Positions 28,884-59,225 of a stretch of DNA of 64,000 bases are shown here, in pieces (the stretch's first letter is position 1; every line of letters begins with the position of its first letter). Below the pieces are notes generated by a model that saw only the letters and a program-made list of their open reading frames with translations, did not search any database and was not told where the DNA came from. The stretch lies in the IMG/VR virus record IMGVR_UViG_3300029342_000002. One strand, written 5' to 3'. The translations under genes and the position numbers were made by a program. This stretch comes from a virus.

Positions 28884-29597
28884 CTATTTAGACAGCTTGT
28901 CTTTTCCGTAGGCTTTGGGAAGCTTGCAGATGGTGGAGGAGCCGTAGCTGTCCTTGGTGAGGAGGACGAATTGGTGGACTGTGGTGGAGTCGTTGAGACT
29001 GATGCCTTTGTCTTTGCAGAAGCTCTCTCGTCCCATGCGGCACGAGCCGGTGAGAACGTGATGATAAGCGAAGAGGTCACGGTTCGGGTAAGGGGTGTCG
29101 TAGTCGGGGAATTTCTTGCGGAAAGCCTCGATTCGTTCCTCTTCGGTGCTGCCATCGTAGAGTTTCTCTTGCAGGGACATGAAGGCATCGTGCAGGGTGT
29201 CGCCGTGAGCGAAGTGGTTTTGTTCCTTGACGATGTAACATGGTTGTAGGGTAAGGTCATGATTTAGAATGAAGCCTTGTGCGATGTTGTCACGGACGGA
29301 TTTTATAATCGTTGGTACGCCGTCTATTACATAAACCTTGTCGCCATTCAGATCCTTTATGCCATCGCCAGAGCCATCGCCATCGCCAGAGCCATCGCCA
29401 GAGCCATAGCCATAGCCATCGCCATAGCCATCGCCATAGCCATAGCCAGAGCCATCGCCAGAGCCATCGCCATCGCCATCGCCATAGCCATAGCCATAGC
29501 CATCGCCATAGCCATCGCCATAGCCATCGCCATAGCCATCGCCATAGCCAGAGCTGATGTTTAAGAATGCTTTGATGCGTGTTTCTAACGTCTCCAT
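28884..29597 (-). CDS. protein with N-terminal (G-[YS]-G-D)n low-complexity tract and conserved C-domain
   Basis: ATG at 29597 (METLETRIKAFLNISSGYGDGYGDGYGD...). About 65 residues of GYGD/GSGD/GDGD repeats are followed by a globular 160-aa domain. Confidence 0.65.
   Translation of the reverse strand: METLETRIKAFLNISSGYGDGYGDGYGDGYGDGYGYGYGDGDGDGSGDGSGYGYGDGYGDGYGYGSGDGSGDGDGSGDGIKDLNGDKVYVIDGVPTIIKSVRDNIAQGFILNHDLTLQPCYIVKEQNHFAHGDTLHDAFMSLQEKLYDGSTEEERIEAFRKKFPDYDTPYPNRDLFAYHHVLTGSCRMGRESFCKDKGISLNDSTTVHQFVLLTKDSYGSSTICKLPKAYGKDKLSK
29366..29561 (-). repeat. hexanucleotide-periodic coding repeat (GCCATC/GCCATA/GCCAGA)n
   Basis: About 32 consecutive 6-nt units on the plus strand, encoding the GYGD/GSGD tract. 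They also generate spurious repeat ORFs on the other strand and frames. Confidence 0.85.
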
Positions 29598-29881
29598 GCT
29601 TTTACCTCCTCTATTGACTTGACGGCTTTGTCCGAGCAAGTGATAATCTCAATCGCATCGAGAATGGTGATGCTGTCTACTGAGACTGTGAACTTGCATT
29701 CTTGCGGTTTTGATGTTCCTTCTTGGGCGAGCTGTGAGAGTGAAGCTGCTCCAGCCCAGTACCAGATGCGTCGGGCGTTATGCAGGGTTACCTCTCTGCC
29801 GTTGTGTGCTACGAGTGTTCCGAACTCAACTCCGCTGCGGTCGCCGCGGATGATTACTTTCTTTCCAATGTTTGTTTCCAT
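29585..29881 (-). CDS. hypothetical protein
   Basis: 98-aa ORF with the motif RRIWYWAGAASLSQLA. Overlaps the next gene by 13 nt. Confidence 0.6.
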   Translation of the reverse strand: METNIGKKVIIRGDRSGVEFGTLVAHNGREVTLHNARRIWYWAGAASLSQLAQEGTSKPQECKFTVSVDSITILDAIEIITCSDKAVKSIEEVKAWRR

Positions 29882-30950: not shown

Positions 30951-30990
30951 GCCTTTCTGGACCTTATTGAGCCTCTTTATGAGGCTGCTT
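30951..30990 (+). repeat. 10-bp phased GCCT repeat array (locus 3 of 5)
   Basis: GCCTTTCTGG ACCTTATTGA GCCTCTTTAT GAGGCTGCTT. Overlaps the stop region of the 30964 gene. Confidence 0.5.
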
Positions 30991-40149: not shown

Positions 40150-41334
40150 ATGAGGTATTTTATCAGTACTAAGGAGAGTAAAAGGAACGAGAGCGGGATG
40201 ATTCCCGTATCGGTGGTGTTCCGTCACGAGGGTAGGGAGTTTGCTGCTTCAACTGGCATAGCGGTGAAGTACGCAATGAACGGCATGGTGTTCTCGGCAG
40301 AGGAGCCTAATCTGAAAGCCAAGACAAGGAGGCTTATGTGTATCATGGACGAGGTGGATAGGTATGTCCTTGAGCACGTGGATTCGGATTATGAGCGGAT
40401 GAAGGAGGATTTGCGCTGCATCGTTACGGGCAAGGACCCGAGGGAAAAGAGGTCGCTTGCAAGTTTTGTGCGTGAGTTTGCCGAACTGAAGAGTGGGAGT
40501 ACAAGGAAAATATATCTCAGGACGGCGGCGTTGATTGAAGGCTATGCGCCTGAGGCGACGTTCGGTTCTGTGAACGGCTCGTGGCTTGACGGCTTCGTGC
40601 GGTCTATTGGCGAGAATGCAAGCGTGAACTATGCTGCCATCAACCTGAGGAATATACGTGCGGTGTTTAACTGGGCGATAGACAACGAATGGACATCGTG
40701 CTATCCGTTCAGACGCTACAAGATAAAGTCGGAGAAGGTGGCAATCAACAATATCTCGCTGGAGCAGCTGAGGGCGGTGCGTGACTTTCCTCTTGATGAC
40801 TGGCGTCGGATTTACCGGGACTTATTCATGTTGTCGTTCTATCTGTGCGGCATCAATCCTGCGGACTTGCTGCGATTGAAGGCGTCGGATATGAAAAACG
40901 GGCGTATTCGCTACAAACGGGCGAAGACAGGGCATTTGTTTGACATTCCAGTACCGAAGCCCGCTGAGGATATTATAAGCCGCTGGAGGGGCAGGAAATG
41001 GCTTCTATGCCCTCTTGACAACTATTCCGACTACAGGGGCTTTTATTGTCACTGGAATGCTGCTCTGAAGAAAATCGGCAGTCTAGAGCTTGCCCCGGAC
41101 AAGTCGGGTGGGTTGCGCAAGAAGGTCTGGCGTCCGATTGTGGAGGGTCTGACGACGTACACGGCTCGTTATACGTTTGCGAGCATCGCCGCGGAACTTG
41201 AGATTCCGCGTGAGACTATAGCTCTTTGTCTCGGTCATTCGTGGGCTGATGTGACGAGCCACTACATCGCCTATGACACTAAGCGCATAGATGATGCGGT
41301 GGCTCGGATTGTGGCTTACGTGGAGGGGAGCTGA
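40150..41334 (+). CDS. int: tyrosine recombinase / phage integrase
   Basis: C-terminal catalytic blocks (TYTARYTFASIAA, LCLGHSWADVTSHYIAY). 394 aa. Adjacent to the tRNA fragment. Confidence 0.8.
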   Translation: MRYFISTKESKRNESGMIPVSVVFRHEGREFAASTGIAVKYAMNGMVFSAEEPNLKAKTRRLMCIMDEVDRYVLEHVDSDYERMKEDLRCIVTGKDPREKRSLASFVREFAELKSGSTRKIYLRTAALIEGYAPEATFGSVNGSWLDGFVRSIGENASVNYAAINLRNIRAVFNWAIDNEWTSCYPFRRYKIKSEKVAINNISLEQLRAVRDFPLDDWRRIYRDLFMLSFYLCGINPADLLRLKASDMKNGRIRYKRAKTGHLFDIPVPKPAEDIISRWRGRKWLLCPLDNYSDYRGFYCHWNAALKKIGSLELAPDKSGGLRKKVWRPIVEGLTTYTARYTFASIAAELEIPRETIALCLGHSWADVTSHYIAYDTKRIDDAVARIVAYVEGS

Positions 41335-41699: not shown

Positions 41700-41897
41700 A
41701 TCTGTTTTGCTGTTTAAAAAAAATAAAAAATTGACACACACGCTTCACAGCTCTCGCGTGCGAGAGTGTGAGTATATAGATGTTATGTATAGCTATTAGG
41801 ATATATGAATGTATATGAATATATACTAATAGCTATATATAATATCTATATATATATAGTGCAATCGCATGCAATCGCATAGGCATAATCGGACGTA

Positions 41898-41996: not shown

Positions 41997-43031
41997 TTAC
42001 TGGTCTTCGGGATAGTCTTTTCCGACCGCATGGAGGGCGTTCATTTCGCGTTCGGCGCGTTCTGCTCCGGGGAGCTGGAAGGCTGCGAATGTCTCGGGTG
42101 AGAGTCCGATTTCTCGGACGATGTACCGCTGCGTCATGGAGATGTTGGGGACGTTGCCTGACATGTGTCCCATGCAGAGGGCTATCTGTTCGATGGGGAT
42201 GCCTTTGATCGCGAGGTTGGTGGCGAAGGAGCGGCGACCGGTGTGTGAGGAGACGAACTCCCACTTGTGTCCTCTCTGCGTGCGTCCTGCGCGGAAGACC
42301 TTGGTGATGGTGTCTATTCCGCATGCCCGGCAGATGTCGCGTATGTTGTCGTTGTAGCACCTTACGGAGATTTCTCTCGGCTCGGTGGGGGAGGTCCGTT
42401 GCAGATAGATGCGCAGCCACGGATGGATGGGGACCTTGACGACGGTCTTGGTCTTGTGCGAGACGTATGTGATGATGCGTCCGTCCTCGCTGATGTTGTC
42501 CGGCGAGAGTGTGAGGCAGTCGGAGAGGCGTGCTCCGCACAGGCATTCGAGCATGAAGATGCGCTTGGCGTGCTTGGCTGCTTTGGTGCGTGGCGTGAAC
42601 TCGTGGATGCGCCGTATCTCGTCGTCGGTGAGCGCTACGGACTGCGACGGGACTTTCTTTGTGCGCAGGACTGTCCCGAAATTGAGTGACGGGACGGGCT
42701 TGGAGGAGTTTTCGCGTATGATGGCGTTGACTTCGGCGAAGATGGTCTTCGCTGAGTTTGGCGCGTATGATGACGCTATCTCCTCTCGGAAGTCCTGAAG
42801 GTTGTCGTCGGTGAGGTCTTCCCACATGGGCGGGCGTCCGACTATGCCCTTGAAGATGTTGACCACCTTTACTCGTCCCGGATGTTTCCATATCCAGGCT
42901 CCGTAGAAGGTGTGGCGCCAGGGATAGCCGTCGTATGTGGCGAAATAGCCTTGTCGGATGGCATTGGCGTACTTTTCCTGCTGTTCGGGAGTGAGCATCT
43001 CCTGCCAGCGTCTTGTCTTGAGTTGTGTCAT
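41997..43031 (-). CDS. second tyrosine recombinase
   Basis: GARLSDCLTL, SSHTGRRSFATNLAIKGIPIEQIALCMGH and MTQRYI correspond to the R..HxxR..Y catalytic blocks. 344 aa. Confidence 0.8.
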   Translation of the reverse strand: MTQLKTRRWQEMLTPEQQEKYANAIRQGYFATYDGYPWRHTFYGAWIWKHPGRVKVVNIFKGIVGRPPMWEDLTDDNLQDFREEIASSYAPNSAKTIFAEVNAIIRENSSKPVPSLNFGTVLRTKKVPSQSVALTDDEIRRIHEFTPRTKAAKHAKRIFMLECLCGARLSDCLTLSPDNISEDGRIITYVSHKTKTVVKVPIHPWLRIYLQRTSPTEPREISVRCYNDNIRDICRACGIDTITKVFRAGRTQRGHKWEFVSSHTGRRSFATNLAIKGIPIEQIALCMGHMSGNVPNISMTQRYIVREIGLSPETFAAFQLPGAERAEREMNALHAVGKDYPEDQ

Positions 43032-43940: not shown

Positions 43941-44010
43941 GGCTCAGGTGGGCCTTACTGGGCCTATCTGAGCCTCTTTAGGTGATGGGCCTCGCTGGGC
44001 CTCTTTATCT
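43941..44010 (+). repeat. 10-bp phased GCCT repeat array (locus 4 of 5, longest)
   Basis: GGCTCAGGTG GGCCTTACTG GGCCTATCTG AGCCTCTTTA GGTGATG GGCCTCGCTG GGCCTCTTTA. Confidence 0.6.
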
Positions 44011-44448: not shown

Positions 44449-45042
44449 TTAGACGAGGGTGACGGTGTAGGCGTGGTGTGGCAGCTGTTTGTATTGACCA
44501 AACCATGTCTTATATTTGCGCGAAACGATGAAGCCGAGCATCTTGAGAAGACCGATGGCATTGGTAGCGTATGGCTCGTCTATGACGATGAATGGGGAGC
44601 CTGCGGAATCGAGGTTGATAATGTCTCGCATGAATTGAGGGAACGGATATTCGTATTCGTCCCACTCTCTTGGTTGTTCGCAATCCAGATCGTACTCTCT
44701 TATGTGGCTGCGGCTGACGGTTTTCTCACCGTTTTCTATACGTTCTATGTTTACGGTATAGTATTTTATCATTTCGCCCCAAACGTTCTTTTTTTTCTTC
44801 CACTTTTTTTCATTGACAACGTAGTGTGTAATGATAGGGACAGTGGAAATGAAAAGGGGATTTTTGGGGGCGTTCTTGTAATCGAGAAAGCGCATTGTTC
44901 TGATTGTGAGCTTTGCGGACATATCGTTCTCGCGGAAGAACTCGACCACCGCGTTTTGGAATGCGGCGGTGTCGAAGGGTGGGGCTTTGAAGCCTTTTTC
45001 TTTAAGAATGTCCTGTGCTCGGACAAATTTGGTTACTGACAT
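44449..45042 (-). CDS. hypothetical protein (first gene downstream of the RT locus)
   Basis: 197-aa ORF with the array-type leader (plus strand CATAATTG..TTTGGTTGATAG) and an upstream hairpin. Confidence 0.6.
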   Translation of the reverse strand: MSVTKFVRAQDILKEKGFKAPPFDTAAFQNAVVEFFRENDMSAKLTIRTMRFLDYKNAPKNPLFISTVPIITHYVVNEKKWKKKKNVWGEMIKYYTVNIERIENGEKTVSRSHIREYDLDCEQPREWDEYEYPFPQFMRDIINLDSAGSPFIVIDEPYATNAIGLLKMLGFIVSRKYKTWFGQYKQLPHHAYTVTLV

Positions 45043-45256
45043 AATTGTTTTATTGTTTGGTTGATAGTGGCGGAGGAGGCGATGTGTGCGCCTCGCTACG
45101 CCTCTTCAGGCTGGCTGTGCTAAGATTGTGAATACAAAGGTAGTGATTTTTGCGATTATCGGACAGCCTTTTGGTGATGTTTTTTTCAAGGAAAAGCGGA
45201 CACGCTCTGAGGATGTGTTGCATTTCTGTAAGTGAATGATCGAAGACCGTTCTGAG

Positions 45257-45299
45257 AAACAGATCTATATCGACAGGTGCTGTCGATAAAGATCTGTTG
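45257..45299. ncRNA. 17-bp interrupted hairpin in the RT-downstream region
   Basis: AACAGATCT-at-ATCGACAG-gtg-CTGTCGAT-aa-AGATCTGTT. Confidence 0.4.
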
Positions 45300-45374
45300 A
45301 TGCAAACAGTCTGGAGTGAATGAATCCTCCTTGCGTGTCCTGTGGGATGCAATTCCCGTGGTGCGGACTTCTCA

Positions 45375-45460
45375 TGAGTGGCGGCACATGGCTGTAGGTG
45401 TGTGATGTGTCCAGAACGTGTGCGGGATGTGTGAGGCGGATGCCGCCTTGAACATCCCGC
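45375..45460. ncRNA. RT-associated structured module, copy A
   Basis: GGCGGCACATGG-CTGTAGGTGTGTGATGTGT (motif 45392-45410), then the nested hairpin GCGGGATGT..GGCGG-atg-CCGCC..ACATCCCGC (45422-45460), then GCTGAAC. Confidence 0.4.
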
Positions 45461-45558
45461 ATTAAAGCTCTGGATGCTGAACGGGACTCTCTTGAAGAAC
45501 GCTTCCCTGTGCTTGGGATGATTGAGAGGCTGAGCCTTTCTGAGGGGCGGCTGTGATG

Positions 45559-45680
45559 TCTTGGCACGTGTCTGTAGGTGAATGATGTTGCCTGCGTAGC
45601 AGAAGGCAGCGGTCCCAGTGGGTAACACTCGGGACCGTGCCTTCTTGCTATTGCCGGTATCTGAATGTGACATCCTTGCT
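45559..45680. ncRNA. RT-associated structured module, copy B
   Basis: GTCTTGGCACGTGT-CTGTAGGTGAATGATGTT (45572-45589), then the hairpin GAAGGCAgCGGTCCC..GGGACCGTGCCTTC (45602-45644), then CTGAATGTGACATCC. Confidence 0.4.
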
Positions 45681-45715
45681 CCGCGATGCCCTGTGCCGGG
45701 CTGGTGATGCGGCTC

Positions 45716-46981
45716 TTAGAGGTTGGCTACGATGGTGTCGTAGGCGGCTTTGCTGGTAAGCAGGGCCTTGCGGGCGCAGCCTAATGTGAGGTAGCCGGTG
45801 ATGATGGGGGCGGTCTTGCTGCGGTTGGCGGTGACGTTTCGTCCTCGTCCTCTCTGTATGCAGCCGACCTGCTGATTCTTGACGAACCCTATGCCTCCTA
45901 TCTTTCGCTTGCCCGTCTTGACGGCTCGGAGGCAGTCCATGACGAACGTGTTGAGCGTCTGGACGTCCTCTTCGACGTTTATGATGGGCAGGACCTGCGT
46001 GGACCATGAATGTCCTTCGTACCCCTTGTATAGATAGCGGTTGACGGAGTTTATGGCTTTTTGCAGGGTGACGTCACGCTTCTTGACTGTGCGCTTCTCG
46101 ATTTCCTTCTGAAAAGTCTTGATGCGCGTAGACGAGAGCGAGATGCTGCTGCCCTTGATGGAGAATCCGAGGAACTTGAACCAATGGTCAGCGTCGAGGA
46201 ATTCTACCTTCTTTGGATTGAGCTTCATCTGCATCTTCGCCAGCTCTTCCTCCATGATGCGCTTGGCTTCCTGCCAGTCCTCGCCCACGAAGATGGCGTC
46301 GTCCGAATAGCGGCAGTAGACGCCGCGGAGACGGGAGAGGCGCTCGTCAATGTGATAGAGGACCACGTCGGCAAGCCATGAGGCTACGCTGCATCCCTGC
46401 TTGAGCGACTGGTATTTCTCGGAGAGAGTGCCGTCGGTGTCGAAATAGAGATTGCAGTGGTAGTAAGCGCGTAGGACGTCTATCAGAGCGGAATGACCGT
46501 GACGAAGCTCTACCTGATCGAACGCCCAGTCGATGTACGACAGGAGCACCGTATCGAAATACTTGGACAGGTCGGACTTGAAGCCTCCGATGCGTCCTTC
46601 CGCGAAGGATATATGTCGGGATATGTTCTGTACGACGCGTCCGCATCCGATGCCCTTCTGATATGATGTGCAGCAGGGATGGACCATTTCGGGTGTCAGT
46701 TCGAAGAGGAGGTCGTTGGCAATGGAGAGGAGTATGCGGTCGGCAGGCTCGTTGATGTAGACGGTGCGGAATTCTCCGTTGTCCTTCGGTATAAGAGCCG
46801 TGTGAGGTGGCATTATCCTGTACTTGCCGTCGCGTATCTTCTGATACATCAAGGCACGTGCCTCGGGTGTGGTGAGCTGATAGAGCGTGGCTTTGTTGAT
46901 GTCCTTGTCGAGTCCTTTCTGTATGGCGTACTGCCAACGCTCGGACTGGAAGGCCATCTGTAAGATTTTGTCTTCTTTCAT
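45716..46981 (-). CDS. reverse transcriptase (stand-alone; class not assigned)
   Basis: ATG at 46981 with the array-type leader. RT motifs 1-7: FRTVYINEP/DRILLSIANDLL, FKSDLSKYFDTV, LKQGCSVASWLADVVL, YCRYSDDAIFVG, MKLNPKKVEF, FKFLGFSI. About 140 aa of thumb-like tail. No other domain recognised. Confidence 0.85.
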   Translation of the reverse strand: MKEDKILQMAFQSERWQYAIQKGLDKDINKATLYQLTTPEARALMYQKIRDGKYRIMPPHTALIPKDNGEFRTVYINEPADRILLSIANDLLFELTPEMVHPCCTSYQKGIGCGRVVQNISRHISFAEGRIGGFKSDLSKYFDTVLLSYIDWAFDQVELRHGHSALIDVLRAYYHCNLYFDTDGTLSEKYQSLKQGCSVASWLADVVLYHIDERLSRLRGVYCRYSDDAIFVGEDWQEAKRIMEEELAKMQMKLNPKKVEFLDADHWFKFLGFSIKGSSISLSSTRIKTFQKEIEKRTVKKRDVTLQKAINSVNRYLYKGYEGHSWSTQVLPIINVEEDVQTLNTFVMDCLRAVKTGKRKIGGIGFVKNQQVGCIQRGRGRNVTANRSKTAPIITGYLTLGCARKALLTSKAAYDTIVANL

Positions 46982-47084
46982 AATTCTTTGGATTTTATGG
47001 TTAATAGAGCGTGAAACATAATGTTTCACGCAGTTTCTGGCGGTGAGGCTCAGAGGAGCGGTGCCTGGATATAAACGGATGATC

Positions 47085-47150
47085 TGGTACTGTCATCTGT
47101 AGTGACGTCGCCGGGATGATATGGCCGGCGACGTCCCGATTGTGACAGTG
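47085..47150. ncRNA. RT-associated structured module, copy C1 (weaker motif)
   Basis: CTGTCAT-CTGTAGTGA overlaps an 11-bp perfect hairpin, GACGTCGCCGG-gatgatatgg-CCGGCGACGTC (47104-47134), extended by CTGTCA/TGACAG. Confidence 0.35.
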
Positions 47151-47209
47151 CCGATGAATGTTCTTCTGCCTCCTCACGGGAAGGACGACAAATCCTTTGC
47201 GGTGCAGCC

Positions 47210-47320
47210 GTGGGCTTGGAGTCTGGCTGTAGGCGAATGATCTGACGACTGCGGTTCGAGGTCAGGACCCAGCCACGGTAATCGACCTGGCTGGTTCCTG
47301 AGTCTCAGAGAGCAGCGTGT
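47210..47320. ncRNA. RT-associated structured module, copy C2
   Basis: GGCTTGGAGTCTGG-CTGTAGGCGAATGATCT (47227-47243), then the hairpin CAGGAcCCAGCC..GGCTGGtTCCTG (47263-47300). Confidence 0.4.
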
Positions 47321-47369
47321 GAACGATGCCCACCCACTGCACGGCGGTGACTTTCGGGGTGATGACGGA

Positions 47370-48380
47370 CTATCGGTCAGCCCACTCGTCAATCTTGTCG
47401 CTCACGGACATGTCTGAATCGGCGATGAGCTGCTTGAGCACGCCCAGCAAGCGCCATCCCTCATCTTCGCGGGCATACTCGGCAGCCTTGCTTTCGATAT
47501 GCTCAAGAGACTTGGCTTCGGACATATTGCGACGGCCCTGCTTGAAGTGTGCTCCGTGGAACAAGACCATGTTGCGCATGGTGAAGTAGGCGCCGGAACC
47601 CTTGTAGGCGTTGATGAACGCCTCGGACTGCTTGGTGTCGGCAGGGAGACGCTTCATAAGCTTGTTGAACTTGACAACAAGACGATAGAGACGTTCTCCG
47701 TTGACGTCATTCATTGCAAGGGCAAGGTCGCGGAAAGGGCTGTAAAGCTTGGACTCCAAGTCAGAGACGAAGATATTCTCTCTGCTAAGACGTACATAGG
47801 GCTTACCCTTGCAAGTGTGAGTGCCTTGGCGCAACAGCTTTTCGATGTAAGAGCGGAGCTTCTGAACATAGTCGAACGCCATGTATGAAGCTACCCTGCC
47901 GTTGAACCAAAGGGCACGCTGTTCGTAGCAGACCTTGTCCTTGTGCTTGAGCATCTTGTACTGGTCGAGCAGTTCCTTCTCAAGCATGCGCCACTGATAG
48001 GCGTAGCCCTTGTTCTGCAAGAGGGCGTTGAAGGAGACGTTCTGACGCTCCATGCGGTCGAGCATGTGGAACATCTGTGACATTACCCAACGGCGGTAGA
48101 GCGTGTAGTTGCGGATGTGACCCCCTCCTGCGATGCTCGCGAAGACGGGATCGTCGTCCGTAACCTGTACGGGGACTCCGTCAACGACCTTGACGACCAT
48201 CTCCTCTCCCATGGGAAAGTAGTTGGAAACGTCTACGCCTGCTGCCTTGAGAGCTGCGATGCGTGTTGCCGCTGACTTCGCCTTTGGCGCTGTTGTGTTC
48301 TGCGACTGTGCCTGTGTGTCGGCGTTAGCTACCTCTGTCATTGTGAACTCACCTGAAATGATAAGATTTCTCTTTTTCAT
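47370..48380 (-). CDS. hypothetical protein
   Basis: 336-aa ORF with the array-type leader and an upstream hairpin (GGCGAGGGGATGCCTCGTC). Confidence 0.6.
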   Translation of the reverse strand: MKKRNLIISGEFTMTEVANADTQAQSQNTTAPKAKSAATRIAALKAAGVDVSNYFPMGEEMVVKVVDGVPVQVTDDDPVFASIAGGGHIRNYTLYRRWVMSQMFHMLDRMERQNVSFNALLQNKGYAYQWRMLEKELLDQYKMLKHKDKVCYEQRALWFNGRVASYMAFDYVQKLRSYIEKLLRQGTHTCKGKPYVRLSRENIFVSDLESKLYSPFRDLALAMNDVNGERLYRLVVKFNKLMKRLPADTKQSEAFINAYKGSGAYFTMRNMVLFHGAHFKQGRRNMSEAKSLEHIESKAAEYAREDEGWRLLGVLKQLIADSDMSVSDKIDEWADR

Positions 48381-48480
48381 AATTCAAAGATTTAAAATTG
48401 TTAATAATGTTGGTTGATTGGTGGGCGAGGGGATGCCTCGTCCTGTTTTTTGGTGGTGAGAATGGCAGGGGATAGGATTG

Positions 48481-48520
48481 GCCTCACTGAGCCTCACTGA
48501 GCCTTACTAAGCCTTTTGGG
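48481..48520 (+). repeat. 10-bp phased GCCT repeat array (locus 5 of 5)
   Basis: GCCTCACTGA GCCTCACTGA GCCTTACTAA GCCTTTTGGG. Confidence 0.6.
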
Positions 48521-48526
48521 GCGTCC

Positions 48527-48982
48527 TTAATCTTCTTTTGACTTTGGCTCTACCCATTGTCGGAGGATAATGAGGTCCTTGTCGTTCGGGGACTGCCAAA
48601 ACCAGCTGCCCCACTTGCTCTGCCATTGGAGCTGTCCGTCAAACAACATGAGAAGGACGAAGACTTCGAGCTGGCAGCGTGCCACTTCGCGTGATACGCC
48701 GTAGAGCATGTCGTGGTCAGAGAGGTCTTTCTCAGGGAGAGCCTTGAAATAACTGCGTCGGTGTGACTCGGAGCGCTCAGAGGGGATGGAGTGCTTGTAC
48801 TGCTGGTAATACCTTTCGATTTCGCGGAGCATAACGGACCCGTTGAGAGGGAGGATGTTGACATCGTCGAGACTGACAAGCTCTCTGTCCAGACGGAGTG
48901 TGCGCTTCTCGAAATTGACGGTGAAACGTGAGCCGAGTTCTACGGCTTGTGAGATGTTCTGCATAAATTGCGTGTGTGTCAT
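48527..48982 (-). CDS. hypothetical protein
   Basis: ATG at 48982 carries the array-type leader (plus strand CATAACTCTTGATGTTTTGGTTTG). The tracked start at 49015 lies upstream of that leader. Confidence 0.55.
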   Translation of the reverse strand: MTHTQFMQNISQAVELGSRFTVNFEKRTLRLDRELVSLDDVNILPLNGSVMLREIERYYQQYKHSIPSERSESHRRSYFKALPEKDLSDHDMLYGVSREVARCQLEVFVLLMLFDGQLQWQSKWGSWFWQSPNDKDLIILRQWVEPKSKED

Positions 48983-49204
48983 AACTCTTGATGTTTTGGT
49001 TTGTTGGCGGTACACTCAAAGGGAATGTCGCATGACTATATGGCGTTGATGTTATCCCGTGTGAAGCACGCGGAGATGTCTGAGTGATAGCTTCAGACAT
49101 CTCGCGTATCTCGTACGGGAAACCAAATAATCCCTCCTTGTGTACCCATTCAGGCTGCGATACCTATTGCTGGTCCATAATCATGTTTTGATGGTTGATG
49201 ATGT

Positions 49205-49320
49205 GGCGTGACGAAGACTTGGCGCATTACTGTAGGTCGTTGATGTATCCAGCGGTAGACTCATCCGGGTAGTGTCCCGGATGAGACGCTGGAGACTGAA
49301 TCCTGTCTTCGCTCACGCCT
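49205..49320. ncRNA. RT-associated structured module, copy D (detached)
   Basis: Closing helix GGCGTGAcGAAGAC / GTCTTCgcTCACGCC. CTTGGCGCATTA-CTGTAGGTCGTTGATGTAT (49230-49248). Hairpin CCAGCG-gtaga-CTCATCCGGG-tagtgt-CCCGGATGAG-a-CGCTGG (49249-49292), then CTGAATCC. Confidence 0.45.
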
Positions 49321-49348
49321 GTTTAAGGCTGCGCTACCTTGGCTTAGG

Positions 49349-49570
49349 TTATAACTGCTGCCACTTGGTTGTGCCGTTGGCCTCCTCTGTGCGGTAGTAA
49401 TCTTGGTCTTCTTCGACTTCGATGCAGTTGTCTATATAATCGTCACTTGTCAGAACGATGTCGTTTTTGAGATAAGCATCTCTTATACGCTGTACAGCTT
49501 CTGCTTCGCTGTCGGCATTCACACTTACCACCTTGTTGAGAAACTCGGTGATTGATACATAATACTTCAT
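49349..49570 (-). CDS. hypothetical protein
   Basis: 73-aa acidic ORF with an array-type leader variant and a hairpin (CAGAGGGA..TCCCTCTG). Confidence 0.55.
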   Translation of the reverse strand: MKYYVSITEFLNKVVSVNADSEAEAVQRIRDAYLKNDIVLTSDDYIDNCIEVEEDQDYYRTEEANGTTKWQQL

Positions 49571-50202: not shown

Positions 50203-50883
50203 TTACATGCGGGTAGGACTTACGATCCGCACGCTGTAATAAGGTGTATTGAAGGGGTATTTGACCTCGTTGACGCAATACATCACGGAGGGCGTGCTCA
50301 TAGTGAGCGTGTCTTGACAAATGACATTGGCGTTCATGCCGTGAGCCATGAGATTGAGGGCGCACATCTTGCAGGCTATGGGGTCAACGTCTTGTGCAAT
50401 GTATCGGAAACGGCGTCCTGCCGAATGGTCAAGACTGCTCTTCTCCATATAATGAGCGAGAAGGAGACGACCGCTGCCAGAGGCGCAGTCGTTGACTATA
50501 CCGCTCTGCTTTTCGTTCAACGAAGATATGCGTGACATGATGTCGGCTACGCTTGGCGGTGTGAAAAACTGTCCTGTATGGGACGCCTTGCCACGTGTGA
50601 GATACAGCTCCTCGTAAAGGATGCCGAACACGTCAATCCACTTGCCTTGCTCCATAGCTGTAGCAACGTCTGTGAGCCACAGGGTAGCGAGACCGGCAAA
50701 TTCGGGACACTTTTGTGTGCAGTCAAGAAGATGCTGATGATAGGTGTCGGGACCGGACTGGAAAGCCTTTACGCTGAAAAACTCGAGCAGATAGTCGAGG
50801 AAATCATTAAGAGCCAACTCGTGAGGACGATGGTTCTTGTCTGCCTGTGCAGAAATGATGTCGATGTACTTTTTCTTTTCCAT
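50203..50883 (-). CDS. HsdM/N6-adenine methyltransferase-like protein, truncated (no NPPF/Y motif seen)
   Basis: GQFFTPPSVADIM (motif X) and VNDCASGSGRLLL (motif I) are present. The protein ends about 25 aa after ..VICQDTL, with no recognisable catalytic NPP[FY]. Confidence 0.5.
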   Translation of the reverse strand: MEKKKYIDIISAQADKNHRPHELALNDFLDYLLEFFSVKAFQSGPDTYHQHLLDCTQKCPEFAGLATLWLTDVATAMEQGKWIDVFGILYEELYLTRGKASHTGQFFTPPSVADIMSRISSLNEKQSGIVNDCASGSGRLLLAHYMEKSSLDHSAGRRFRYIAQDVDPIACKMCALNLMAHGMNANVICQDTLTMSTPSVMYCVNEVKYPFNTPYYSVRIVSPTRM

Positions 50884-50958
50884 AATTCTTGTTTTTTAAT
50901 GGTTGATGGTGCCACGCACAAAGGCGTGGCGGTTTTCAGGCTGCTCCGTAAGTCTTTT

Positions 50959-51948
50959 TTAGGCTGTTTCGGAATCGACGTAGCTGCGTGCCGTATCGTA
51001 AATCTCGGCAATCTGTTTTTTGTCAAGACGATAGCAGCCTTTAATATTGTCCGAAAATTCTTCGAGCGTAAGCATCGGGTCGTTATAGAGGGACTCGCAA
51101 CAATATTCGAGACACTCGTCGTAATCCCAAGACGTGCAGTAACACTCCCAATAGTTGTCGCTGCCATAGCTGGCACAGCCGCATTCTTCGTCAGGTTCGT
51201 AAGGATAGACGGACGTGCAATGCTCTATGAGGTGGCAGACAAAGCTGTAACACTTCTGGACGTCCTCGATAACTGTGAACTCATGGTCGGTGTGCGGTTC
51301 GTAATAACCGCAGGACATATTGATGCACGATACGGTGACACCGTTTCTGCGCAATGCCTCGACATCGGTCATAAGACCCGTGCTGACGACATATCCGTAG
51401 CTTGTGCAGTCGGCATCCTTGATGAATTCGTCAGAACAGATGCTATCAAAGGAAATACTTGTGACCATATCGCTGTTGCCGCGACGGTCGATCTGAGCAC
51501 AGAAGCGACAATCGTTGAAGAAGCTGATGTCGGCAGCACTTGAGCCTACGCATCCAATCTCTTCGCCTACGAAGAACGCACACTTGAGAACGTCGTAACG
51601 CTCAAGGCATTGCAGGGCGATGAATATGCCGTTCTTGTCGTCAGCACCGAGACCGCACTGCTTGCGGACTTTTGGCGAGTAGCCAAAGATGACACCTTGA
51701 CTCTCAACGCACACGAAGTCCTTGGGATGAAGATGCTGCACCTGGTCCATGTGTGCGCACAGGCAAGGATAGCTCTCTGCTTCGCCTTTGGTGACGAAGA
51801 GATTGCCGTACTCGTCCTGTGTGACAATGGCTGAGGGAACAATGTTCTTGATGTGTTTCTTGATGAAACGACGCATGCGCTTCTCTTCGTCACTTGGCGA
51901 GAATACGCAATAAAGACTCTTGAGTAGGTCAAAATTCAATTCTTTCAT
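50959..51948 (-). CDS. M42/M20-type metallopeptidase-like protein with Cys/acidic C-terminal extension
   Basis: CAHMDQV, GLGADDKNG and FFVGEEIGCVGS resemble the metal-ligand blocks of M42/M20 aminopeptidases. Confidence 0.45.
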   Translation of the reverse strand: MKELNFDLLKSLYCVFSPSDEEKRMRRFIKKHIKNIVPSAIVTQDEYGNLFVTKGEAESYPCLCAHMDQVQHLHPKDFVCVESQGVIFGYSPKVRKQCGLGADDKNGIFIALQCLERYDVLKCAFFVGEEIGCVGSSAADISFFNDCRFCAQIDRRGNSDMVTSISFDSICSDEFIKDADCTSYGYVVSTGLMTDVEALRRNGVTVSCINMSCGYYEPHTDHEFTVIEDVQKCYSFVCHLIEHCTSVYPYEPDEECGCASYGSDNYWECYCTSWDYDECLEYCCESLYNDPMLTLEEFSDNIKGCYRLDKKQIAEIYDTARSYVDSETA

Positions 51949-57137: not shown

Positions 57138-57431
57138 TTACTTGCCGGCTTTCTCGTTCACGTAGGCTACAAGGCGCTCGAACTTTGCGTCGTTTTCTTC
57201 TGTGCTGTAGAACGGATTGAATGAGAAATACTCATTGTAAGTGAGGGAATCTACGTCTTTCTTGTCCTTATTGTAGCCAACGCAAACGCCGATTTGGGCA
57301 GATATGCAGGGATCTACCACAATAGATAGGCCCAGATGCTTGTCAAAAAATGTTCTTCTCTGCATCTCCTGTATTTTTGGGAGGATTACTTTGGCTATCC
57401 TCTCAGACTCTGTAAGCTTTTTCTTTTCCAT
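57138..57431 (-). CDS. hypothetical protein
   Basis: ATG at 57431 with the array-type leader. The tracked longer start lies inside the upstream hairpin region. Confidence 0.5.
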   Translation of the reverse strand: MEKKKLTESERIAKVILPKIQEMQRRTFFDKHLGLSIVVDPCISAQIGVCVGYNKDKKDVDSLTYNEYFSFNPFYSTEENDAKFERLVAYVNEKAGK

Positions 57432-57498
57432 AATTCTCTTGTTTTTATTGGTTATCTTGAGCCGTGACACGCACAATAATAGTGCTGCCACGGCATTT

Positions 57499-59140: not shown

Positions 59141-59165
59141 TACGTAAAATCTGTCTCTTTGTCAT
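58929..59165 (-). CDS. possible 78-aa hydrophobic repeat protein (coding status uncertain)
   Basis: Has the array-type leader at 59165, but the body consists of the 13-mer repeat units (SSTIIVLG / SSTIISVLG / SSTKIGNG). An alternative frame, 58868-59068, is also open. Confidence 0.35.
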   Translation of the reverse strand: MTKRQILRSSTIIVLGNLQLVPCLLILSSTIISVLGILYILFLLYFWSSTKIGNGFFKNFVRENERLEKILLKPSSES

Positions 59166-59225
59166 AATTCTGAATTTTTGATGGTTAACTGGAAGGTAGC
59201 CAAAAGACTACCCTTTTTAGGCGGA

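Follow-up and report, generated by a model that had tools for sequence, protein, structure and literature searches.

A complete UG27 reverse transcriptase system with six repeated structured units in a temperate Bacteroidales phage

What kind of reverse transcriptase (RT) does a phage carry between two stretches that encode no credible protein, and what are these stretches? The question is raised by the RT gene at 45716-46981 on the minus strand of IMG/VR virus record IMGVR_UViG_3300029342_000002, of which 64,000 nucleotides (nt) were analysed (the window). An original prediction had described a complete but stand-alone phage RT, free of any fused effector domain and sandwiched between gene-poor flanks with hairpins and a shared multi-copy module, and had matched the arrangement to no known class. 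The phage location, the effector-free RT and a structured non-coding element that occurs in several copies, to either side of the gene, all stand, whereas the stand-alone state and the unmatched class do not. The locus, part of a temperate Bacteroidales phage, comprises all of a UG27 system: the RT, its two partner genes RTas337 and RTas346, and six structured units.

Classification by profile hidden Markov models (HMMs) places the RT in a known group. Its product matches nearly every position of the PADLOC profile RT_UG27 (2-420 of 420; 703 bits, E 2.6e-212), while the runner-up profiles RT_UG26, Drt9 (UG28) and RT_UG17 reach 115, 85 and 85 bits, respectively. The closest characterised profile is that of Drt9 (UG28; E 1.6e-24, 84.6 bits). 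Pfam reports a full RVT_1 (E 9e-17) as sole domain, in line with a complete RT domain that is fused to no effector. The gene is not on its own, however. Two genes immediately upstream match PADLOC RTas337 and RTas346, and tblastn detects both proteins, oriented like the RT, in 76 of 80 related IMG/VR loci. UG27 membership follows from the full-profile match, the two partner matches and their co-orientation with the RT.

Other classes were considered and rejected. The NCBIfam models for group II intron, retron, Drt2, Drt3a and Drt4 RTs all score far under their cut-offs. For a retron-type RT, NF038233 retron_St85_RT gives 45.9 bits (cut-off 235) and PADLOC RT_Ec107-like only 48 bits. For a group II intron, TIGR04416 gives 96.8 bits (cut-off 300), with no GIIM domain and no Rfam group II match at gathering or permissive thresholds. 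Membership in DRT2 or DRT9 is rejected by PADLOC scores of 47.4 (Drt2) and 84.6 bits (Drt9) as compared to 703 bits for UG27, and by an NCBIfam Drt2 score of 43.7 (cut-off 390). A diversity-generating retroelement is rejected as well: near the RT there are no direct repeats of at least 25 nt beyond the unit motifs described below, and the changes in the long hairpin of the units preserve pairing and are not adenine-specific.

UG27 is a class 2 UG/Abi RT group (Mestre et al. 2022, Nucleic Acids Research; PMC9226505). It was described mostly from predicted human-gut phages of Bacteroidetes and Firmicutes and is not enriched in defence islands; its partners are the protein clusters 346 and 337, neither with recognisable domains, and its predicted non-coding RNA (ncRNA) comprises three long stem-loops in the intergenic region beside the RT (PMC9226505). 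The window shares with this system the end-to-end profile match, both protein clusters, the gut Bacteroidales phage and a non-coding region with long stem-loops adjoining the RT. It differs in gene order, which is RTas346, RTas337, RT rather than the usual RT, array, RTas346, RTas337, and in an RNA region that is split over three intergenic gaps. Moreover, we resolve this region into six units with a pseudoknot and a fast-evolving hairpin, where the 2022 text gives one ncRNA with three long stem-loops (PMC9226505). A structured non-coding region between the RT and its associated genes is expected of UG27, and six structured units with covariation are present here; the published UG27 covariance model is not part of Rfam. 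An Rfam search of the whole window yields no family at gathering thresholds, and permissive thresholds give only chance microRNA-like matches within 44900-49500. By way of the UG27 profile and the units, the RT is placed inside a known class with its RNA essentially found. RT class, partner genes, phage habitat and adjacent structured RNA were all published in 2022, and the locus is not new as a discovery. A September 2026 preprint (10.64898/2026.09.22.753630), known to us by term counts alone, appears to treat a 'UG27 ncRNA'. The repeated units, the pseudoknot, the fast-evolving hairpin and the cassette-like gain and loss reported here may or may not already stand in it.

What do the flanks contain? 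Both are free of credible genes, as had been stated. The only long open reading frame (ORF) of the downstream flank (207 aa, 45050-45673, minus strand) spans the repeat units and is disrupted by indels of 9-21 nt, not multiples of three, among phages with a 99%-identical RT. Compared to shuffles, the downstream flank folds on the RT strand with z = -11.6 and the upstream flank, to a moderate extent, with z = -3.2. A repeat finder combined with folding recovers the five predicted hairpins (45244-45312, 45421-45461, 45601-45645, 47103-47135 and 47262-47301). The shared module is likewise real. It reads CTGTAGGYGAATGAT on the plus strand, i.e. ATCAYYCRCCTACAG on the RT strand, and is present at 45226-45240, 45392-45406, 45572-45586 and 47227-47241, with a degenerate copy at 47069-47083 and a sixth copy at 49230-49244, beyond the range covered originally. 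Hairpins and module turn out to be parts of one unit of ~135-185 nt, of which there are six copies, all in RT orientation. Units C, B and A are located downstream of the RT, E and D upstream, and F another 2.2 kb further upstream. Within the window, units are confined to a module of 4.2 kb.

In the direction of RT coding, the unit starts at its 5' end with a small hairpin with a 6-nt loop (P0), followed by the 5' strands of a closing helix (P1a, P1b), the motif RTTYA as 5' junction, a long hairpin (P2), a single-stranded 3' junction (J3) and the return strands of P1b and then P1a. P1a usually consists of 7-8 bp and P1b of 4-8 bp, separated by a 3-nt purine-rich internal loop. P2 is 46-74 nt long in the window and has one or two internal loops. 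J3 spans 24-29 nt and follows the pattern ATCA-N6-TAYAG-N3-UGYGC. The P0 loop is complementary to UGYGC in J3 of its own unit, resulting in a pseudoknot. Units A, B, C and F have it; in E it is weak, and D lacks it. Unit C begins 15 nt past the RT stop codon. The internal loop between P1a and P1b (e.g. 45332-45330 with 45208-45206) is conserved in most units as RAG opposite WGA (AAG/AGA, AAG/UGA, GAG/AGA), and this sequence suggests tandem purine-purine pairs or a protein-binding site.

The structure is supported by covariation. When 36 diverse units are folded singly, each gives the P1/P2 architecture. A perfect Watson-Crick run of at least 7 bp in fixed geometry is found for P1 in 59% of 206 distinct units, as compared to 13% with mismatched flanks, and the P1 sequences are wholly different between units (GGACACGC, GACTTATC, AGGTACAC, GTCTTCA, GGCGTGA, GTCCCGAC and others). 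The pseudoknot forms at least five Watson-Crick pairs in 119 of 159 distinct units versus 11-14% in two controls. At least 12 covarying versions exist, among them GCACA:UGUGC, UUGCAU:AUGCAA, GCACG:CGUGC, GCGCA:UGCGC, GUACG:CGUAC, UUGCC:GGCAA and UCGCA:UGCGA. A MAFFT alignment of paralogous units (A3) does not keep the helices in register, each row retaining only 5-18 of 21 pairs. Hence we relied on our own detectors and on an alignment of orthologous units. In the latter (37 units) 84% of cells pair, in contrast to 30-40% with slid partners; compensatory, two-sided changes occur in 22 of 35 pairs, and the observed covariation score is reached by none of 500 shuffles. Compensatory changes are also seen at the P2 tip of unit A in comparison to the related locus L001.

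The association with the RT extends well beyond the window. Our unit detector looks for both junction motifs, 3' and 5', with a hairpin filling the space between them. Applied to the window and the 80 IMG/VR loci, it reports 286 units in RT orientation versus 4 in the opposite one. A relaxed pattern finds 140 RT-oriented versus 10 opposite units in 34 loci (30 bacterial genome records), which include Alistipes, Bacteroides and Faecalimonas and extend to an RT identity of 55%; in nearly all cases 3-8 tandem units directly follow the RT. Beside the 55%-identical RT of a Faecalimonas bin a unit can be recognised by eye. In all, about 110 related Bacteroidales phage or prophage loci carry 2-8 units, which with few exceptions point in the direction of the RT. 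Among bacterial genome records, RT relatives show identities of 42-75% and belong to Segatella copri (including a complete chromosome), Prevotella, Leyella, Muribaculaceae, Alistipes, Bacteroides, Butyricimonas, Barnesiella and a few Firmicutes bins. The longest array of the set is that of an Alistipes senegalensis metagenome-assembled genome (L110, ~750-1770) with at least seven consecutive units and a period of ~170 nt.

Scaffold and hairpin evolve at different rates. Among orthologous units the mean pairwise identity is 0.88-0.92 for the scaffold, 0.84 for RT third codon positions and 0.70-0.76 for the P2 interior. The P2 interior thus changes faster than RT third codon positions, yet it stays paired, while the scaffold changes more slowly. 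In 29% of the pairs of near-identical RT genes, the P2 interiors of the first unit are quite different; the alternative stems are all self-complementary. Whole units vary as well. Unit D is found in the window and in L003 and is cleanly absent from L001, L002 and L004 despite 99%-identical RTs, the indel being bordered by CACCGC(C). Apart from the units, 10-nt tandem repeats (AGGCTCAGTG / GGCTTAGTAA on the RT strand) are located in intergenic spacers at 48481-48529, 45520-45550, 43952-43980 and 30951-30979, and their copy number varies among phages with 99%-identical RTs (the window, L001, L003 and L004).

Why do the units lie on both sides of the RT? Most relatives have the order 73-aa ORF, RT, an ORF-free stretch of 1.2-1.6 kb (the array), RTas346 and RTas337. 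The window differs from this, as do the phages closest to it, with 73-aa ORF, gap, RTas346, RTas337, gap, RT, gap. Units flank the RT here because the gene order is permuted, and the apparent sandwich is a circular permutation of the conserved UG27 module rather than a new architecture. In 71 of 80 related loci tblastn finds the 73-aa ORF in RT orientation, mostly directly upstream of the RT. In the ORF list the RTas346 frame runs on to a GTG at 49015; homologues comprise 147-152 aa. Searches of Pfam and PHROG give no match for RTas337 or RTas346. The AlphaFold2 model of RTas337 is mostly helical (predicted local distance difference test, pLDDT, 80.5) and gives nothing significant among PDB folds (best E 0.48), nor does a profile search of this protein against PDB sequences return a significant match. 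The RTas346 model (pLDDT 84.8) has no match among PDB folds. The window holds two ORFs of 336 aa; kinship between them was considered and rejected, as they are unrelated and their equal length is a coincidence. Coordinates are collected in Table 1.

Table 1. Components of the UG27 locus and sequence signals close to it (positions in the window).
Feature	Position	Strand	Parts and basis
UG27 reverse transcriptase	45716..46981	(-)	421 aa from ATG; catalytic YSDD; no further domain
RTas337, UG27-associated	47370..48380	(-)	336 aa; PADLOC RTas337, E 4.3e-101
RTas346, UG27-associated	48527..48982	(-)	~151 aa; PADLOC RTas346, E 2.2e-50
73-aa ORF conserved beside the module	49349..49570	(-)	tblastn
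Unit A	45198..45357	(-)	P0 45357-45344; P1a 45340-45333/45205-45198; P1b 45329-45324/45214-45209; ATTCA 45321-45317; P2 45312-45244; J3 45240-45215; pseudoknot 45352-45347 with 45223-45218
Unit B	45369..45518	(-)	P0 45517-45505; GTTCA 45482-45478; P2 45474-45410; J3 45406-45380; pseudoknot GCACA 45512-45508 with UGUGC 45388-45384
Unit C	45547..45701	(-)	P0 45701-45688; P1b 45674-45669/45560-45555; ATTCA 45666-45662; P2 45657-45591; J3 45586-45561; pseudoknot GGCAC with GUGCC 45567-45563
Unit D	47043..47197	(-)	degenerate; TATAT replaces TACAG; no pseudoknot partner; P2 47152-47086; J3 47083-47055
Unit E	47202..47356	(-)	P1a 47342-47336/47208-47202; P1b 47333-47328/47215-47210; GTTCA 47324-47320; P2 47318-47245; J3 47241-47216; 4-bp pseudoknot candidate only
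Unit F	49205..49340	(-)	between 73-aa ORF and RTas346; P0 49340-49325; P1a 49319-49314/49210-49205; P1b 49312-49305/49218-49211; P2 49293-49248; J3 49244-49219; pseudoknot GCGCA 49334-49330 with UGCGC 49226-49222
U-rich tract GCUUUUCCUUG	45187..45197	(-)	directly after the closing helix of unit A; read from sequence
TACCTTTG	45135..45142	(-)	exact match to TAnnTTTG; ahead of the next gene (44449-45042)
Palindrome GTGAAAC-ATTAT-GTTTCAC	47011..47029	(-)	perfect, 7 bp; 30 nt upstream of the RT start; conserved in L001-L004

How might the RT and the units act together? Very probably the RT would recognise the constant scaffold that every unit offers. That it binds the scaffold and copies part of the unit appears most likely because of the analogy with characterised RTs of the class and with retrons; to our knowledge, all characterised class 2 relatives (DRT2, DRT9) take the adjacent ncRNA as template. 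We tentatively propose, at somewhat less than an even chance, that the unit would serve as RT template and that the variable P2 is the part most likely copied, giving a set of small hairpin complementary DNAs (cDNAs) comparable to the msd of retrons. P2 is favoured because only its pairing is conserved, as in an msd, and because a helix resembling a1/a2 closes each unit. RTas337 and RTas346 would then act on or with the cDNA product. As to the role, we guess at counter-defence or competition between phages, since the system is phage-borne and absent from defence islands. Taken as a whole, this explanation blends a near-certain identity with a much less certain template model, and we consider it evenly balanced. 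An extension of it seems rather doubtful to us: the array could form a multi-template cassette in which each unit is an independent substrate whose P2 would give a distinct hairpin cDNA. The repertoire would be shaped by an arms race with the host (e.g. as decoys for, or escape from, nucleic-acid-targeting defences), with units gained, lost and shuffled between related phages.

A comparison with known systems shows how far these analogies reach. Like retrons, the locus combines an effector-free RT and accessory proteins with an outer helix similar to a1/a2 and a sequence-variable long hairpin, similar to msd, beside conserved elements for RT recognition. Unlike in retrons, the RT is not of the retron type, the RNA lies mainly downstream of it, up to eight tandem copies are present in UG27 arrays, a pseudoknot is formed and no branching-G context is identified; moreover, UG27 is phage-encoded and not enriched in defence islands. 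With DRT9 (UG28) and DRT2 (UG2) the locus shares class 2 UG/Abi membership and a single-domain RT with adjacent structured ncRNA. Their ncRNAs, however, are single-copy, upstream of the RT and part of bacterial defence loci, whereas UG27 is phage-borne, with tandem copies and two partner proteins of its own. A DRT2-like mechanism with rolling-circle copying into a concatemeric ORF is unlikely and was rejected: the TCA motifs flanking P2 are spaced by 56-82 nt, not by multiples of three, and the sequence is hypervariable.

The main rival to P2 as template is a short template of the telomerase or DRT9 kind. Here J3 (ATCA-N6-TAYAG) would be copied, with P2 as 5' boundary and scaffold helix and the pseudoknot positioning the template, and the product would be short or reiterated DNA. 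No part of the unit is better conserved than J3, even beside RTs of only 55% identity, a motif conservation that fits J3 as template equally well and so weighs against our preference for P2. Also to be set against the favoured explanation, units D and E have no good pseudoknot and are perhaps inactive. For the short template speaks, further, that P2 can vary as long as pairing is kept, and that by HMM no characterised RT group is closer than Drt9 (UG28). Telomerase RNA cores contain a template, a pseudoknot and a core-enclosing helix. In the UG27 unit, too, the enclosing helix forms a closed loop in which the conserved single-stranded J3 is located between boundary helix and pseudoknot; there is no sequence or protein relationship, and this likeness is a lead only. 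On the other hand, N6 within J3 differs between units, so that the products would differ. We regard a J3 template as possible, albeit unlikely.

Does the strand allow such a function? The units are probably transcribed on the RT strand, within the RT operon. The alternative is that they are RNA from the strand opposite the RT, or that the fold of the complement is selected, with the RT working on antisense transcripts. Several observations favour this alternative and speak against the RT strand. At stacked internal helix positions A.C exceeds G.U on the RT strand (132 versus 59; dereplicated 45 versus 26), for 39 of 44 representative hairpins the complement is the strand of lower free energy, and the z-score of the upstream flank is slightly better on the opposite strand (-4.1 versus -3.2). 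The complement junctions, moreover, read UGAU...UGAA, a tandem G.A arrangement. Wobble counts in P0, P1 and pseudoknot are too small to favour either strand. The additional stability of the complement is largely an effect of its G+U composition, because outside the helices the RT strand is rich in A+C; another possible reading is that the cDNA strand must fold. In contrast, relative to composition-matched shuffles the main array stands out more on the RT strand than on the complement (z -11.6 versus -7.2), and the RNAalifold consensus is better there as well (-9.0 versus -4.6 kcal/mol). The RT strand carries all genes of the region. Most relatives have the array inside the operon between two genes, which leaves no room for an antisense promoter. 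An antisense origin is hence quite improbable in our view. Units that function as RNA only, as decoys for host proteins, processing signals or operon regulators, while the RT copies another template, would fit the fast evolution of P2, as expected of a decoy in an arms race, and the CRISPR spacers reported against the UG27 intergenic region (PMC9226505). The tight linkage and co-orientation of units and UG27 RT over about 110 loci, even where the gene order is permuted, argues against this, as does the use of adjacent ncRNA as template in the characterised relatives, and we consider it very unlikely. Finally, the units might be features of the DNA without RNA function, i.e. decayed genes, a replication origin with iterons or miniature mobile repeats. 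The clean presence/absence polymorphism of unit D with a direct repeat of 6-7 nt at its borders and the spread of units over three intergenic gaps agree with this. Extensive compensatory covariation in four helices and the pseudoknot and an orientation strictly tied to the RT do not, and across relatives there is neither an intact frame nor protein homology. We judge a DNA-level explanation barely conceivable.

Some local signals accompany the favoured arrangement of RT and array on one transcript. The U-rich tract behind unit A is possibly the end of the RT-plus-array transcript; a simple terminator scan does not report it. The motif TAnnTTTG is the Bacteroidetes -7 promoter consensus, which makes TACCTTTG a candidate -7 box. 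That this box comes after the U-rich tract and before the next gene speaks for the RT strand. A scan for sigma-70 promoters and terminators finds nothing above shuffle expectation. The palindrome upstream of the RT may be an operator or a small regulatory hairpin. A conserved block AACCAA..N..AAGAATTATG precedes most genes on the minus strand (e.g. 46967-47005, 50869-50907, 57417-57455 and 59151-59189; families D2-D6) and is probably a phage-specific start signal for translation or transcription.

The window further encodes two tyrosine integrases at 40150-41334 (plus strand) and 41997-43031 (minus strand). Between their genes there is an AT-rich inverted repeat of 34 nt (41773-41852, 91% complementary, 12-nt spacer), possibly a site of attachment or recombination. 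Directly ahead of the UG27 module, on its upstream side, are the genes of an N6 DNA methyltransferase-like protein (50203-50883, minus strand; Pfam N6_Mtase, E 1e-15) and a peptidase-like protein (50959-51948, minus strand; phrog_4191, E 3e-54); the methyltransferase is found near the RT in just 8 of 80 relatives. A 12-nt tandem repeat at 29325-29586 (minus strand) within ORF 28884-29639 translates into an N-terminal run of GYGD/GSGD tetrapeptides in a 251-aa protein. The window has no near match among INPHARED phage genomes; IMG/VR sequences of 47-167 kb carry RTs that are 72-100% identical to that of the window.

UG27 is one of the few RT groups that are mainly carried by phages rather than by their hosts, and it is abundant in human-gut Bacteroidales phages. 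For its two partner proteins, no fold relatives are detectable. What is gained here is a testable anatomy of the RNA partner, in which a unit is repeated, its pseudoknot covaries, its scaffold stays constant and its hairpin outpaces synonymous sites in evolution, and with it concrete targets for mutagenesis and cDNA sequencing.

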